NCBI GenBank assembly: GCA_038870455.1
Contig: JAWCPB010000015.1
Coordinates: forward strand, 1 to 26,761
Direction: 5' to 3'
Length of the DNA: 26,761 nucleotides
Source of the DNA: Candidatus Micrarchaeia archaeon
Lineage (GTDB): Archaea; Micrarchaeota; Micrarchaeia; Burarchaeales; JACRGF01
The position numbers are program-made. Shown in pieces: positions 12,001 through 18,000 of the stretch; position 1 is the stretch's first letter; the number at the start of each line of letters is the position of its first letter.

Positions 12001-15000
12001 CCCTCGCTTCCTGCAGCAGAATGCCGAGCCCCCTTCCGAGGATGAAGAGCGGGGAGCGCTCGGCCCTGCTCGGCTCCTCGGCCTGCGGAAGGTGGAGAAG
12101 CCAGTCGAAGAAAGGCCCTCTCGTTGAGGGCGGCAGCTGGACGCAGAACCTCTCGCCGGCCAGGCCGGCCCTGCGGATCGCCTTCTCGGCGATTCTCTGG
12201 AACCTCACGGCCGCTCCCGGAAAGCGCTTTTTGCCCCCGATAAGCCTAACGCTCACCGTCTCAACGCCGGCCGCCGTCTCGACCCTCCTCGGCGCGTGGT
12301 TGGTCTGCGCGTACACGCTGGGAACGAGCGCGACCACTCTCGCGCTCGGCTCGCGTTTTAGGAAGTGCGCGATGACGTCGGCCATGTGCTCCTCCTTCTT
12401 CTCCCTCATCAGCGCGGTCTGGCGCCCGAACTCGCGCAGATACCCCCTCCTGATGTAGTCGGTCACCTCGAGCGCGAGCACGCGTGCCCTGCACGTCTTC
12501 TCGAAGTTCAGTCTCCGCACTTCATCGAGCAGCCTGGCGAGCGCTGCCCTGTGCTCTGGGGGAAAGGCGGCCAGAGGCGCGAGCGCGTCCTCCCTTCCCC
12601 TCCCCCTGAACGCGTACTCATCGAGCGCGCCCTGCGCGTCGCTCGGCCATGCATCGAGCGCCAGGTTAGAGAAACCAAGCCCACACAGCCCGCTCAGGTT
12701 CTCTGTGAGCTCCGCCTTTCCGGCCAGCACGTCGCGGCACTCGCCGATGAAAAGCGCCCTCGCCCGCCCGGCAATCCTCGCCCAGTCTACGGGCGCGCGC
12801 TTTTCGAGCAGAGCGTAAAACCCTTCCACTGAGGCGAAAGGCTCCACGCGCCGATTTCGTGTTCTTGTTTAAATTGTTTTTCGAAGCGCCCGCGCCGCCT
12901 GCACGACCTCCTCTTCAGCTAGCTCGAGCACGCGCTTTTCCGAGAACGGCATGGATGCGAAGAGCGCCCTGGCCTCTGCCTTGCCGAGGTTCAGCTGCCT
13001 CCTCGAATCCACCACTGCGTTTATCAGCCTCTTTCTCCTGTGCTGAAAGAGCGCTCCCGCAAACTTCTCGAGCGCGGCGTCGAAAACCCGCCCTCTCGGG
13101 AGGAGCTCGACGACCGCACTCTCGACTTCAGGCATCGGCTTGAACGCAGACCTCGGCACGCGGAAGAGGATTTTCACGTCGAAATAATACTGCGAGGAGA
13201 ATGACAGGCGCGAGCGCTCCCTCTCCCCGGGCCCTGCGACCATCCTCTCCGCGAACTCGCGCTGCAGGCACAGGAGCGCGCGCTCGAACCTCCACAGCGG
13301 AAGGCGGAAGAGGATGGGTGATGAAATCGAATACGGCGTATTGGAAACAATCACATCAACCGGCTCTGGGTTCATCTCCAGGAAATCGGCGCACACGATC
13401 CGCGCGTTCGGATAGCCTGCGAGCGCGCTCTTGAGGAAAGGAAGCAGCCTCCTGTCTTTCTCGACCGCGATCACTTCCCTCGCCCGCTTTGCGAGCGGAA
13501 TGGTGAGCGCGCCCAAGCCCGCGCCTATCTCGAGAACAGCTTTTCCATCGCACGCCGCGGCCTCGGCCTCCCGCGCGGCAATCCTTTCATCAACAAGAAA
13601 ATTCTGCCCCAGGCTCTTCCTCGGCCTTGCGAGAAGCAGCGCGCTGTCGAGCGAAGCCATTCACCACTCCCTTCTCTGCGGCGGGCGCGTGAGGATGTAA
13701 TACTTGCTGTCGCCCCTCAGCTCCTCCTCGATGCGCTGTACGATGAGCGTTGCGGGGTCGGGCAGGAACGGCACGCGCGCGCTGATGTCGGCAAAGTTGG
13801 CGAAAGGCTTCTTCTCCCTCTCGGACATTATGTCGTGCATGTGCTTCTTGCCCACTCCGGGAAGCAGCTCGAGCTGGTGCAGGCGTATCGTCACGGGCCC
13901 GCACTTGTTGAAGAAGTTCGTGTAATCCGCCTCCCTGCCGCGCACTATGCCGAGCAACACTCCCCGCAGCTCGCTTCTGGCCGCGCTCGTGAGCTCGTTG
14001 TACCCGATGCGCGTCTTGATGCGGTCTATCTTCTCGCGCTCGCCCTTTCCAATGTACACCCTCTCTCCAACGCGCAGGCTCGCGCCGGCCTTGGGAATGA
14101 CTTCAAGCAGCGTGAAGAAGTTCTCTCCGACGACCTGGGCGACCGGCTCCCTCCTTGTGTCCGTGGCCTTGCCGTAGGGAAGGAAATCTACCACGACGCC
14201 ATAATCCTCCATTATAGTCATGCGACCGCCCCATCACATCGTCACCGGTACTTCTGCACTATGGACAGCACTTCCTCAATCTCCTTCTCGCCCAGCGCGT
14301 AGCGCTCTTTGGCGAAAACGAGCGCGAGCTCGACCGCATTCTTGGGCAGGAGGTCAGCTATCTTTGCCGCCGCATCGGGCGACACCCTCTCGATTCTCCC
14401 CAGCTCGGCGACGAGCTTGGCGGCCTTGTCGGCCGGCAGCCTGGCGAACTTCTGGGCGTGCTCGAGCGTTGCGGCCTGCTCGAAGCCAAGCTCGCCCTCG
14501 CCCTTTCTCTGCGCGAGGATTTCGGCCACCTCTGCCAGCGTCGCGGCCCTTGCAGCCCTGACTTCTTTTCCTATCACTCAACTCCCCCTTAACTCACTCT
14601 GACGAGATGAACGCCTGGAACAACGAGGCGCTTGGCTGCCCCGCCGTCCTGAATCTCGACTATGTAAGCGCTTCCCTGCATGCCGACCACCCTACCGGTC
14701 CTGCCCCTGTACCTCGGGTGCGGCATGCCGGCGTGGCCTCCCCTGGCCTGTATGGCCACGCGCTCGCCCTGCGCGAACCGCCTGAGCAGGGCGCTCGTTC
14801 CGAGCCTCCGCGCGCTCGCCCTGCGCCTAAGGAGCCTGCTTCTCTTCGATAGCTTGCCCAATGAACGCTTCAACAAAACCGCCTCCCAGAAGTTATTTTT
14901 TCAGGGGTTTGCTATTTAAAAGGATATAGTTAAATAGGTTGCGAGGGAAACATTTAAATACCGGCGAATTTTTTCCGGGGTGGTTCGTTTGGCTCGCAAG

Positions 15001-18000
15001 AAAAAACGCGGGAGAAGGGCTAGGGGAGTGTCTATCCCGAGGCCGAGGTTCAAGATAGAGAACATCGTCGCAAGCGCCAACCTGGGCATCGAGCTCGACC
15101 TGTACGCGATCGCGCAGAAGGTGCGTGACGTGGAGTACGAGCCCGAGCAGTTTCCCGGCGCCATACTCAAGCTCAAACAGCCGCGCGCCTCGCTGCTGCT
15201 GTTCAAGAACGGCAAAGTCATCTGCACGGGCAGCAAGAGCGAGGCCGAGGTCAAGCAGGCGCTCGACCAGGCCGTGCGCATGCTGGCGCTGCACGTGGTG
15301 CGGAAAAAGAAGTAATTTAAACTCCGCCTGTGCAATATGTTCGGTCAGCGGCCACAGGAGAGGGGTCAGACCCGAACCCATTCCGAACTCGGCAGTGAAT
15401 CCCTCTCACGACGTTGCCTGTACTGCCCTACGGCGGGAAAGCGCGTTGCTGCTGGCCACTATCAGAACCAATCGATGACTTCGTCGGCTCATTGCGCGTT
15501 AATCTCGACTTTTCCGGCCGCTATGCGTATTTCCTCTGGCGTTATGGTGAAGTGGTGGCGGAAGTACAGCGCGCCGCTGAAGCTCTCGTTGGCCGCGAAC
15601 TGCCTGTTCTCGCCCGCTTCGTTCCTGCACGGCACGGGCGCGAGGTCCGCAGCCCCTCCTTGCGGAATGCTCCTGTTCAGCTTCGTCCATTCAGTTTCCG
15701 GAAGCAGCCGCACGTCGCGCGCCTTGCTCGAGCAGTACAGGCCCGTCACGACGACTTCCCCGGGCAGGGTGTTCTTCACCCTCAGCGCCAGATAGCCGTC
15801 CTTTGAAAGCCTTGCTGAGCATGCGAGGCCTGGCGGCAGCAGGCACTCCCGCGAAGCGTTTTCGTCCGCCAGCGTCGCGTTGGCCCCCGCGCACTCCTCC
15901 AGGCTCTCGGCGAACGAGCCGTTGAGGCATACGAACGCAGCGCCCGCCGGCCCCCCAGCACACCCGAGCAGGGCGACGCCTGCAGCCAAAACAACTATCA
16001 GTCTCTTCATCATTCAACCAGCTCCCCTCTCAGCACGAGGAACATCTCTATCGCTGCTATTATGAGCACTGCTTTGGGAACAACCCACGCGAGCGGAAGC
16101 CCGGCCTGGCGGTTGGCCACCAGCACTCCCTCGACAAAGTTCTCGAACGCGAGCGCGAAGCAGACGAGGATAAGCGCGGCGAGCGAGCGTGCCTCCCTCT
16201 TCCTGGAGAGCGCATCGATGTAGGCGCGCAGCAGCAGCAGGGTGATGACCATCCACAGTACCGCGGAGAGCCACAGCGCGCCCGTAATAATCTCGCTCAC
16301 GCTCACCCTTTGCAAACAGGCTTTTTAAAATCTCGCGCCCATCTTCATCCCGATGAAGTCATCCGCCATCCCTGGCTTCTACAAGCTGAGCATCGACGAG
16401 AGAGTCCGGCTGGTGAAGGAGTTCGCCGGCCTGAGCGAGGCCGAGGCCGGCCTGCTGAAGGGATGCGCGCTGCCCGCAGAGACCGCCAACCGCATGATAG
16501 AGAATGTCGTGGGCATTCACGGCCTTCCCCTCGGCATCGCCACCTACTTCACCATAAACGGCAGGGACTGCCTGATTCCAATGGCGCTCGAGGAGCCGAG
16601 CGTGGTCGCCGCGGCCTCGCACGCCGCAAAGCTCGCGAGGGAAGCGGGAGGCTTTCACGCCGAAGCGGGCGAGCCTCTCATGAGCGGGCAGATTCAGCTC
16701 GTGGGGGTTGCAAACGCAGGAAAGGCAGCCGAGGATATTTCGGCGCATGCAGGCGAGCTTCTGGCAAGCCTGCGGGATGTCGATGCGGTTCTTGTGAAAC
16801 ACGGCGGCGGGCCGAGGGAGCTGGGCGCGAGGGTGCTCGAGACGGCGCGTGGGAAGATGGTGGTGGCCGAACTGGTTGTGGATGTGCGCGACGCCATGGG
16901 CGCGAACGCGGTGAACACGATGTGCGAGAAGCTCGCGCCGCGGCTCGAGAAAATAACGGGCGGTCGGGCCAGGCTCCGCATACTCTCAAACCTCGCGGTC
17001 AGGCGGCTTGCGCGGGCGAGCGCCGTGTGGAAAAAAGAGGTCATCGGCGAGGACGCGGTGGAGGGGGTTCTTGATGCCTGGGCGCTCGCCGAGGCCGACT
17101 CTTTCAGGTGCGCCACGCACAACAAGGGCGTGATGAACGGCGTTGACGCGGTGGCGGTTGCCACGGGGAACGACTGGCGCGCGCTCGAGGCGGGCGCGCA
17201 CGCGTACGCGGCGAGAAGCGGGAAATACGCGCCGCTCACCAGGTACGAGAAAGACGGGCAGGGCAATCTCACCGGCTTCATAGAGCTTCCCATCGCGGCC
17301 GGGGTTGTCGGAGGCGCCACGAGAACCCACCCCCTCGCGCAGCTCGCGCTCAAAATCATGGGCGTGGCCACCGCGCGCGAGCTCGCGATGGTGATGGCGT
17401 GCGTCGGCCTTGCGAACAACTTTGCCGCGCTGCGCGCGCTCGTCACCGAAGGCATTCAAAGGGGGCACATGGCGCTGCACGCGCGCAACATCGCGGTCAT
17501 GGCGGGCGCGAAGGGAAGCGAGATCGATGCTGTTGCAGAAGCGCTCGCGGCAGAGGGAAACGTCCGCATCGACAGGGCGAGGGAGGTTCTCGCGCGCTTG
17601 AGGAAGAGGCGGTGAGCGTGGGTCTGCTGGAAAAGCAGGATGTTTTTCTGCTCGCGATAGTCATTGCCTTCGCCTTCGCCATTGTCTTAATTGGTTTCGG
17701 AAAGATTGACGCGCGCACCTACCCCCATCTTCTTCTCATTGAGAGCGGAAGCCGCGCCACGGCCTTTCATGCGACGCTCGCCGCGCTCAAGGAGAGCGCC
17801 GGAGGGGATGGAAAGGCTTTCCTCAAGAGCGCCGCCTCCATGTTGCCCGTTGCGCTCGCTGCCCTATCAACAGCATTCGTTTTTCTCGCGCTCCTGCCAG
17901 CCGGCAGGTTCCACGCTTTTTTCGCGGCCGTGCTGTACGCGTCCTCACCCCTCCTGCTCGCGAGCTCTTCCTCCGGGGTGCTGCTTCCCGAAACGCTCGG

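Follow-up and report, generated by a model that had tools for sequence, protein, structure and literature searches.

The Micrarchaeia archaeon studied here is likely to possess a genuine, selected TATA-binding protein (TBP) of one repeat that is the organism's only TBP and acts as a homodimer, in a phylum where the gene appears to switch form; this is the reading that best explains our data jointly. TBP is needed to start transcription throughout archaea and eukaryotes, and textbooks trace its two-lobed saddle to a half-size protein that was duplicated long ago. To our knowledge, that half-size ancestor has never been seen working as a transcription factor. The organisms described below appear to run all transcription on a half-size TBP, and close relatives have two halves or a fused gene. 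Our literature search found no report of a sole single-repeat TBP with such form switching.

A half-size TBP gene with no room for a second repeat

The gene lies in the window (the whole 26,761-nt stretch of DNA that was analysed) among the following features.

14589..14876, minus strand: ribosomal protein L21e gene, divergent, upstream of the TBP gene (PF01157, E 3.3e-19)
14953..14958, plus strand: TTTAAA, probable TATA box ahead of the TBP gene (at -27 relative to GTG 14980 and -36 relative to TTG 14989)
14980..15315, plus strand: single-repeat TBP gene (ORF from GTG 14980, 111 aa; 108 aa from TTG 14989)
15049..15288, plus strand: the one TBP repeat (Pfam match, aa 24-103; order S1-H1-S2-S3-S4-S5-H2)
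15317..15322, plus strand: second TTTAAA, likely 5S promoter (27 nt ahead of the 5S rRNA 5' end)
15344..15457, plus strand: 5S rRNA gene (Rfam RF00001, 59.7 bits, E 2.2e-10, full length)

The initial annotation had described a 111-aa gene with one TBP repeat, and we re-obtained the ORF, its enclosing stop-bounded frame of 125 aa and a single PF00352 stretch (E 1.3e-29, 102.3 bits), which places the product in the Pfam family above the curated cut-off of 22.9. The two tandem repeats in one polypeptide that characterize a canonical TBP are not present. The one-repeat architecture therefore stands, but the length of 111 aa is less secure: the GTG does not lie in the reading frame of G018, a genome of the same genus, where the first in-frame start is the counterpart of TTG 14989, so the protein may have 108 aa, which is also the length of its database copy (P0075). 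Both the N-terminal tail and the C-terminus are basic, whereas many archaeal TBPs carry an acidic C-terminal tail.

The L21e gene heads a minus-strand row, L21e-RpoF(Rpb4)-DUF655-KsgA (neighbours PF03874, PF04919 and PF00398), and the 5S rRNA begins 28 nt past the TBP stop codon, the distance given previously; between them, a second TBP repeat has no space at the locus. Compared with its G018 counterpart over 108 codons, the gene has a dN/dS of 0.068; it is real and under purifying selection.

The TTTAAA that had been placed at -27 is found there and is also kept upstream of the G018 TBP gene. Across the source genome, TTTAAA is the commonest hexamer in the interval before ORF starts (145 occurrences, 3.6-fold enriched), with 11, 22, 13 and 13 matches at positions -30 to -27 and at most 7, mostly 0-5, elsewhere. 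The copy ahead of the TBP gene sits at the promoter distance usual for this genome.

The repeat resembles one lobe of a canonical TBP

The repeat carries N28, V30, F58, F75 and T83 together with EYEPEQFPG, the motif of the stirrup, which in canonical TBP binds TFB/TFIIB. In an alignment of 70 single-repeat sequences, the invariant positions are N28, V30, Y53-I62 (YEPEQFPGAI), F75, K76, G78, I81, C82 and G84, in keeping with the earlier statement that F58 and F75 do not vary. N28, V30, F58, F75 and T83 align with equivalent positions in both repeats of the solved structures 2z8u and 1mp9. From TBP-DNA structures we take the Phe pair to kink DNA and the central Asn/Val/Thr to contact it; this half-site set is complete in the single repeat. 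Scores of the protein against the two repeats of solved TBPs are almost the same (69.2 and 73.2 bits on 2z8u, 68.0 and 63.8 on 1mp9), much as had been reported.

An AF2 model of the protein (pLDDT 87.8) has a single lobe, and each of its 44 PDB matches at E <= 0.001 is a TBP. The best of these superpose at an rmsd of 0.7-0.9 A over ~80 columns and span half of each target (TM ~0.7 by query, ~0.45 by target). The predicted structure is that of a TBP lobe, with a five-stranded sheet and two helices.

Set beside canonical archaeal TBPs (2z8u of M. jannaschii, 1mp9 of S. acidocaldarius and 1pcz/1ais of P. woesei), the window's TBP belongs to the same Pfam family and has the same lobe fold, and its repeat is ~41-48% identical to either of theirs. 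The Phe pair, the Asn/Val of S1 and the EYEPEQFPG stirrup, which occurs in both 2z8u repeats, are common to both groups, as is the presence of TFB genes, of which this genome has two. Canonical chains differ in having two repeats, whereas the window's TBP has one, and its saddle would be made of two chains and be perfectly symmetric.

Single-repeat TBP is the rule across the order

Searched in six frames, the source genome (51 contigs, 90.04% complete) yielded a single strong TBP match, as previously claimed; the next Pfam matches lay at E 0.011 and 0.016, and our 70-sequence profile returned no second match in this genome at E <= 10. Since the assembly is 90% complete, the case for a sole TBP leans on relatives. 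Of the 29 genomes of the order, 28 have a TBP match, and all strong matches fall in frames of 100-145 aa (the range stated in the initial annotation) apart from one 51-aa frame cut by a contig start; no two-repeat frame was found in any of the 28. At E <= 1 the profile gave exactly one match, single-repeat each time, in G018 (95% complete), in the six-contig G014 (98% complete) and in G065 and G068, one-contig genomes of another family, which agrees with the earlier count of one match in such assemblies. A full-length TBP of the kind that accompanies an accessory protein was seen neither in the source genome nor in the 28 genomes of the order, G065, G068, G014 or G018. The single-repeat form is thus the rule across the order and in many other families, one-contig assemblies included, and the claim that it is the order's only TBP and common elsewhere is borne out. 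The gene is not single-copy across the whole order, since 7 of the 28 genomes hold 2-3 single-repeat TBP genes, and heterodimers are therefore possible in these relatives. For annotation, our data imply that a TBP gene of 100 aa from these archaea is not to be taken for a fragment.

Paired, fused and chimeric TBP genes

Two half-genes are common in other families. In f11, the largest family sampled, 64 of 71 genomes have two TBP matches, which lie in separate frames in every case among the matches listed (130 of a total of 143); in all five one-contig f11 genomes with two half-genes, the pair is 115-760 kb apart on the chromosome. All 61 genomes of f12 have a match, 31 with one gene and 26 with two unlinked genes, and 60 of them have single-repeat frames only; the native exception, G222, has a tandem duplicate at a contig end. 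Because f11 and about half of f12 have two unlinked paralogs, heterodimers of half-TBPs are possible beside the likely homodimers. The earlier proposal of a homodimer only fits the single-repeat form but is too narrow for these paralog pairs.

Fused TBPs are also found in the phylum (P0001-P0120; families f10, f13-f16, f20 and f25). Both of their halves are 56-78% identical to the window's repeat and share with it the conserved core FPGAI..LLLFKNGK.IC.G, but each chain has two repeats, and these halves are 56-91% identical to each other, probably homogenised by conversion tracts. Among sampled fused genes, N and C repeats are 59.8-82.5% identical (18/18), compared with 34.1-54.7% in outgroup TBPs from Nitrososphaerota and Bathyarchaeia (n=80). 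Identical nucleotide tracts of 37-95 nt are shared by the two repeats in 11 of the 18 fused genes, against an outgroup maximum of 35 and median of 11. Such tracts of identical DNA between the halves point to gene conversion, which would be an unreported mode of concerted evolution in a core transcription factor.

Fused proteins with 80-91% identical repeats neighbour single-repeat ones. In the fused P0001, the repeats are 91.5% identical to one another and 92-94% identical to the single-repeat TBPs of f19; its model forms a complete saddle with a pLDDT of 92.1 and a TM of 0.83-0.92 against solved TBPs, though the quality of this model may stem from likeness to those structures. Judged from such sequences, TBP repeats are interchangeable in Micrarchaeota. 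Since single-repeat and fused TBPs intermingle at >90% identity and gene conversion is indicated, TBP architecture appears labile and not a fixed lineage trait, and the earlier reading is too narrow in this respect too.

Two genes may record the switching. The 96-aa gene of G261 consists of the 5' part of the N repeat, a shared core and the 3' part of the C repeat of a sister genome's fused gene, and would represent a fused-to-single chimera if the direction is as we infer. In G222, a tandem duplication with a 309-nt unit at 95% identity has joined two copies of a single-repeat gene, and the contig ends inside such a unit. Micrarchaeota TBP genes thus appear to switch repeatedly between half size and full size.

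Trees of TBP repeats were built on 82 columns, and AU tests rejected neither a single clade of all Micrarchaeota N repeats (p 0.40) nor the classical single clade of the N repeats of both phyla (p 0.19). Multiple origins of the fused TBP are therefore suggested rather than established. There is an outside chance that the homodimeric single-repeat TBP is the ancestral state of the phylum, possibly a surviving pre-fusion TBP, from which fused TBPs arise repeatedly by tandem duplication (in some families via two unlinked paralogs) and to which they revert by recombination. If so, the bipartite TBP has more than one origin, and Micrarchaeota are replaying it.

Alternative explanations

An assembly artefact could mimic a half-size gene if a fused TBP had (near-)identical repeats and a short-read assembler passed over one of them, so that an in-frame single-repeat ORF was left. 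Several of the observations above would fit: fused genes whose repeats have as much as 95 nt of unbroken identity, fused proteins adjoining single-repeat ones, the G222 contig that stops within its tandem unit, and the G261 gene, which is the exact chimera expected from collapse. Fused genes with 95-nt identical tracts were nevertheless assembled as fused, single genes are present in one-contig genomes, and architecture is uniform within families (28/28 genomes with a match in the order; 60/61 in f12), with a lone short frame in only 1 of ~87 genomes of families with fused sequenced loci. De Bruijn assemblers usually break the contig at a full-coverage loop or traverse it, and seldom skip it. 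The window's TBP gene is mid-contig with unique flanks, and among the best 120 matches in a database of 5.8 billion proteins, where a fused relative would score highest, no fused protein exceeds 78% identity to the window's TBP. For the f11 pairs, whose half-genes are far apart in 5/5 one-contig genomes, collapse is ruled out because it cannot yield two loci; for the single-repeat form overall, we judge it very unlikely.

The half-TBP might be genuine and yet have another partner, either a TBP-like protein of 93 aa, whose gene follows ThiI on contig C2 of the same genome, or, as a monomer, TFB. The 93-aa protein has a weak TBP-domain match (E 0.008), albeit without the Phe pair, and monopartite TBP-domain proteins of unknown role exist in Thermococcales, as described in PMC3597702. 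By a single-protein query in a divergent family, it occurs in 44 of 251 phylum genomes, mostly in f16 (36/46), a family with fused TBP, and, among sampled genomes, in 3/14 others of the order, 0/65 of f11 and 0/47 of f12, so it does not track the single-repeat form. A monomer would have only one Phe pair, half a saddle. We regard another partner as quite improbable. A canonical two-repeat TBP might instead lie in the unassembled 10% of the 51-contig genome, with the 14980-15315 product as an accessory half-TBP; TbpA-type single-domain proteins do live beside full TBPs in Halobacteria (PMC3597702). Against this, the near-complete and one-contig relatives G018, G014, G065 and G068 have one single-repeat match each, and two-repeat frames are missing from all genomes of the order. 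The two such frames in single-repeat families, whose N-C identity of 42-47% is ordinary, are on foreign-looking contigs, one (G162:C43) encoding a TBP 84% identical to a Thaumarchaeota TBP and the other (G054:C77) on a contig of 3.7 kb. The chance of a hidden full-length TBP seems next to negligible.

A symmetric homodimer as the probable working form

For the sole half-size TBP, a symmetric homodimer is the best inference from sequence and model, and two copies probably pair. Full half-site residues, a single-lobe fold and natural fusions of two near-identical repeats form the basis for considering it. One repeat would be a half-saddle with all the DNA-contact residues of one half-site, and two chains would therefore form the saddle. 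The identical chains would pair across their S1 strands and H2 helices into the ten-stranded saddle for which canonical TBP uses two covalently linked repeats. This dimer would attach to the TTTAAA box, which is often a palindrome, and offer TFB a pair of stirrups that are exactly alike. In that case the orientation of a promoter would come from TFB and from the element lying upstream of the box, TBP not being involved. The gene would alternate among three states: a lone half-gene encoding a homodimer, a pair of unlinked half-genes that may encode a heterodimer, and a fused gene. The routes are likely tandem duplication-fusion and deletion through inter-repeat recombination, with gene conversion keeping the halves alike. 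Dimerisation, binding to DNA and to TFB, and which way each switch ran all belong to this proposed reading; the natural proteins make long-standing questions testable at the bench, namely TATA bending and TFB recruitment by a symmetric homodimer, the value of asymmetry and the ease of fusion.

Comparison with other half-size proteins

A homodimeric half-size protein beside fused pseudo-dimers has an analogue, in principle, in LAGLIDADG homing endonucleases, where homodimeric I-CreI and single-chain forms recognize palindromic and asymmetric DNA sites, respectively; fold and function are unrelated. Closer in fold is halobacterial TbpA which, according to PMC3597702, has one TBP-type repeat, like the window's TBP, and clusters with true TBP repeats and not with distant TBP-fold domains. 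TbpA is reported to be non-essential and has full-length TBPs beside it, whereas we found no two-repeat TBP in the source genome or in whole orders and families. The same source describes monopartite TBP-domain proteins in Thermococcales, such as NP_578195 of P. furiosus, strongly diverged from TBP and beside a normal one; with ~90-100 aa and a single TBP fold, they are similar in size to the window's TBP. Proteins of this class, which includes RNase HIII N-domains, match the TBP profile weakly, whereas the window's TBP scores 102 bits (69-73 on each 2z8u repeat) and falls outside it. The 93-aa protein on C2 looks closer to the Thermococcales monopartite class.

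A single-repeat TBP gene boxed in by L21e and 5S rRNA

The TBP gene of the window lies among the following features:

Upstream of the TBP gene, − strand: L21e gene, divergent, first of an L21e-RpoF(Rpb4)-DUF655-KsgA row
14953-14958, + strand: TTTAAA, 27 nt 5' of GTG 14980
14980-15315, + strand: single-repeat TBP ORF with a GTG start, 111 aa, within a 125-aa stop-bounded frame
15317-15322, + strand: second TTTAAA, 27 nt 5' of the 5S rRNA
15344-15457, + strand: full-length 5S rRNA, starting 28 nt past the TBP stop

Pfam family PF00352 matched the window protein in one stretch only (aa 24–103, E 1.3e-29, 102.3 bits vs a cut-off of 22.9), which, in so short a stop-bounded frame, bears out the description of one TBP repeat in the initial annotation; the sequence likewise holds the TTTAAA at −27 and the 5S rRNA 28 nt downstream that were reported there. 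Because the L21e gene upstream and the 5S rRNA downstream box the gene in, a second repeat cannot hide beside it. The protein length of 111 aa stood only in part: the GTG ORF does encode 111 aa, but GTG 14980 is out of frame, by a 1-nt indel, in the same-genus genome G018 (locus L013), where the earliest start in the reading frame aligns with TTG 14989, three codons past the window GTG. This conserved start therefore suggests, together with a database copy of 108 aa (P0075), that the window protein may have 108 aa rather than 111. Compared with G018, dN/dS was 0.068 over 108 codons, tails counted in, and the gene is under strong constraint. Farther along the contig, a 174-aa ORF (15489-16013, − strand) had no Pfam match; its hydrophobic N-terminus ends in LLGC and resembles a lipoprotein signal.

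Alignment of 70 single-repeat sequences revealed invariant positions at N28, V30, D40, L41, Y53-I62 (YEPEQFPGAI), F75, K76, G78, I81, C82, and G84, so that F58 and F75, previously described as invariant, hold in every sequence. Placed by alignment to solved TBPs, these two residues make up the Phe pair with which a single repeat kinks DNA, and N28, V30, and T83 are the central minor-groove contacts, roles known from TBP–DNA structures. The stirrup motif EYEPEQFPG of the window protein recurs unchanged in both repeats of M. jannaschii TBP (2z8u). Scores of the window protein against the N and C repeats were 69.2/73.2 bits on 2z8u and 68.0/63.8 bits on S. acidocaldarius TBP (1mp9), close to the equality claimed earlier. 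An AF2 model (pLDDT 87.8) folded as one TBP lobe: all 44 PDB matches at E ≤ 0.001 were TBPs (best rmsd 0.7–0.9 Å over ~80 columns), and in each the model spanned half of the target. Tail charge was rejected as a discriminator, with a net charge of +2.8 ahead of S1 in single-repeat proteins, +2.8 ahead of N repeats, and +4.1 in linkers.

The sole TBP found in the genome

We searched the window's genome, G000 (1.04 Mb, 51 contigs, 90.04% complete), in six frames. With our own profile, built from the 70 single-repeat sequences, there was no second TBP at E ≤ 10, and the claim of a sole TBP gene was upheld within this 90.04% complete assembly. PF00352 recovered the window locus (E 9.3e-30) and two weak matches (E 0.011 and 0.016). 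One of these, on contig C9, was taken as chance rather than a TBP because it is antisense to a 336-aa ORF and contains a stop. The other is a 93-aa ORF on contig C2 (L002:1426-1707, + strand) that overlaps the stop of a ThiI gene; its protein matches the TBP domain below threshold (E 0.008), lacks the Phe pair, and may be related to the monopartite TBP-domain proteins of Thermococcales.

A second, canonical TBP overlooked in G000 is unlikely: the window locus stood alone at E ≤ 10, and the same profile at E ≤ 1 found exactly one match each in same-genus G018, in the 6-contig G014 (98% complete), and in the one-contig G065 and G068, in agreement with the earlier report of one-contig genomes with a single match. 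The two-contig G007 had three matches at this threshold. It is also unlikely that the half-TBP works with a foreign partner, for which the 93-aa protein was the candidate. A single-protein query of this divergent family found relatives in 44 of 251 phylum genomes, including 36 of 46 in family f16, none of 65 in f11, none of 47 in f12, and 3 of 14 other genomes of G000's order within that sample. Its richest family, f16, is one with fused TBPs (N and C repeats in one gene). Since this distribution does not follow the single-repeat form, we rejected the 93-aa protein as the missing half.

Distribution of TBP architectures in Micrarchaeota

The single-repeat form had been described as the only TBP of the order, Burarchaeales. 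As to form this stood, with TBP matches in 28 of 29 genomes and all strong ones in 100–145-aa frames bar one (51 aa, cut by a contig start), but the gene is not single-copy throughout: seven genomes have two or three single-repeat TBP genes. G011, of the same order, carries two near-identical ones of 104 and 102 aa on the minus strand of contig C62 (L199:659-973 and 1934-2242), 1.27 kb apart.

Across the phylum sample, 246 of 251 genomes had a TBP match and about 73 had exactly one, as read from the match table (counts take in the unpublished genomes G056 and G216, and no result depends on either). TBP architecture follows families. Of 20 two-match loci fetched, 19 were two-repeat genes, 18 of them native (seven in f10, four in f16, two each in f13 and f25, and one each in f14, f15, and f20) and one, G054:C77, foreign-looking; in the 20th, G067:C43, a long frame contains a single repeat. 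Each of the 17 loci sampled in f17–f19, f21–f24, f26, f28, f30, and f31 had one repeat, as expected from the earlier claim that many families share the form. The largest family sampled, f11, had a match in 70 of 71 genomes and exactly two in 64. Among the 143 match rows listed, 130 come from these 64 genomes, with every pair in separate frames and either on different contigs or far apart; in all five one-contig f11 genomes the two half-genes were 115–760 kb apart. All 61 genomes of f12 had a match: 31 with one gene, 26 with two unlinked genes, three (G230, G191, and G054) with three or four matches, and one (G222) with a tandem pair. Extrapolating from examined loci and rows, ~164 of the 251 genomes belong to families with single-repeat genes only. 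Two two-repeat frames in single-repeat families look foreign, and the N–C identity of both is ordinary: G162:C43 (L033; N–C identity 47%) is probably bin contamination, because it shares 84% identity with a TBP from Thaumarchaeota, and G054:C77 (L078; f12) lies on a 3.7-kb contig and has an N–C identity of 42.5%.

These patterns bear on the possibility, not raised in the initial annotation, that single-repeat genes are assembly artifacts, in which a near-perfect tandem repeat was reduced to one unit. We consider such collapse very improbable, given that architecture is uniform within families, that single genes occur in one-contig genomes, and that half-gene pairs in f11 are unlinked. Fused genes with 95-nt identical tracts were nonetheless assembled correctly, a lone short frame appeared in only 1 of ~87 genomes of fused families, and no fused protein among the 120 top-scoring database matches was >78% identical to the window protein. 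Our data indicate that the single-repeat TBP is a real, unusual variant of a universal factor.

Repeat likeness and gene conversion in fused relatives

N–C identity was 59.8–82.5% in 18 fused genes sampled from Micrarchaeota genomes and 56–91% in 119 database matches (a set biased toward the query), compared to 34.1–54.7% in 80 outgroup TBPs (Nitrososphaerota and Bathyarchaeia) and, by approximate hand count, ~56% in 2z8u and ~49% in 1mp9. The DNA of fused Micrarchaeota genes is a mosaic, with the core in perfectly identical tracts and flanks where synonymous positions, too, have diverged. In 11 of the 18 genes, the longest N–C run of identity was 37–95 nt (outgroup median 11, maximum 35), and the following stand out:

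L060 (G029), L063 (G242), L064 (G133), L073 (G112), L076 (G033), and L077 (G078): fused TBP genes, identical tracts of 47–95 nt over the core

Because identical core tracts sit beside synonymously diverged flanks, this patchy identity bears the signature of gene conversion between the repeats of one TBP gene and indicates intragenic conversion inside a core transcription factor. Synonymous divergence between N and C ranged, inside one family, from 0.33 up to saturation. A model of the fused protein P0001 formed a complete saddle (pLDDT 92.1, TM 0.83–0.92 to solved TBPs), which agrees with two near-identical repeats packing together, though likeness to solved TBPs may drive this result.

A careful tree of 104 repeats (82 columns; single, N, and C repeats plus outgroup) separated all Micrarchaeota repeats from all outgroup repeats (support 100/97). 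Outgroup N repeats formed one clade (96/81), as did outgroup C repeats (84/66), whereas Micrarchaeota N and C repeats clustered by lineage (f16+f20, 96/90; f14+f15, 98/78; f10+f13+f25, 92/92), and none of 200 bootstrap trees united the Micrarchaeota N repeats. Such a grouping is expected from conversion and from repeated duplication alike. AU tests rejected neither a single clade of Micrarchaeota N repeats (p 0.40) nor the classical N-with-N topology across phyla (p 0.19), and we therefore do not claim multiple origins as established.

Individual genes suggest switching between architectures. G261, from a fused genus, has a 96-aa single-repeat gene (L197:710-1000) that matches the fused gene of its sister G029 (L060:543-1112) piecewise: its 5' part is that of the N repeat, its middle the core common to both repeats, and its 3' part that of the C repeat. 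This exact chimera reflects either a recent recombinational deletion or assembly collapse. The tandem pair of G222 (G222:C39, L200:504-924) is built of a 309-nt unit and fuses two copies of an entire single-repeat gene, 95% identical over the visible 112 nt before the contig stops within the upstream copy. A quick tree nested database fused proteins in single-repeat clades: P0001 grouped with f19 (SH-aLRT 92), its repeats being 91.5% identical mutually and 92–94% identical to f19 singles; P0022 and P0030 grouped with one-contig f12 genomes (support 90, about 84–92% identity); and P0002 and P0006 fell in the group holding G000's order (83–84% identical to order members). The window repeat itself trends toward such an N-5'/C-3' chimera (5' part 0.68 identity to N vs 0.60 to C; 3' part 0.29 vs 0.39), but the signal is weak and disappears when averaged over all singles. 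A GTGGT microhomology at 14980 and 15295 (315 nt apart, in frame) has five bases, too few to count.

Relation to previous reports

Brindefalk et al. 2013 (PMC3597702) describe halobacterial TbpA as non-essential and the monopartite TBP-domain proteins of Thermococcales as diverged, both alongside full TBPs. Ravarani et al. 2020 (PMC7221094) assign single lobes to bacteria, TBP is noted only as conserved in a DPANN comparison (PMC8407392), and a poxvirus paper (PMC12917281) presents monopartite TBP as a hypothetical prototype. Open-access PMC and bioRxiv full texts yielded no report of a lineage with a half-TBP as its only TBP, nor of unlinked half-TBP pairs or N–C repeat conversion. ESM Atlas contains clusters of 88–123-aa TBP proteins whose commonest phylum is Microcaldota, the NCBI name of the same phylum; short TBPs have thus been present in databases yet unremarked. 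The wider evolutionary pattern makes the half-TBP more interesting than in its first description.

A putative symmetric TBP dimer

G000 encodes a TBP with one repeat per chain and a complete set of half-site residues, from one such gene under strong constraint, and TFB is present. A putative TBP homodimer is well motivated: two chains of one repeat each would build the saddle between them with perfect symmetry, and the dimer would bind the often palindromic TTTAAA box and offer two equivalent stirrups. Promoter direction would then be supplied by TFB reading an upstream element, matching 1999 work by Bell, and by Littlefield and colleagues, in which archaeal promoter polarity was reportedly set by BRE and TFB rather than TBP. 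Where a family carries two half-genes that have diverged, a heterodimer is just as plausible.

The genome has two TFB genes. At a genomic GC content of 59.9%, TTTAAA peaks at −30 to −27 ahead of G000 ORF starts and is the commonest hexamer 27–30 nt before them, with A enriched 5–6 nt upstream. The position of the box and the upstream A fit short-leader or leaderless transcripts, probably of many genes, and a weak orienting element.
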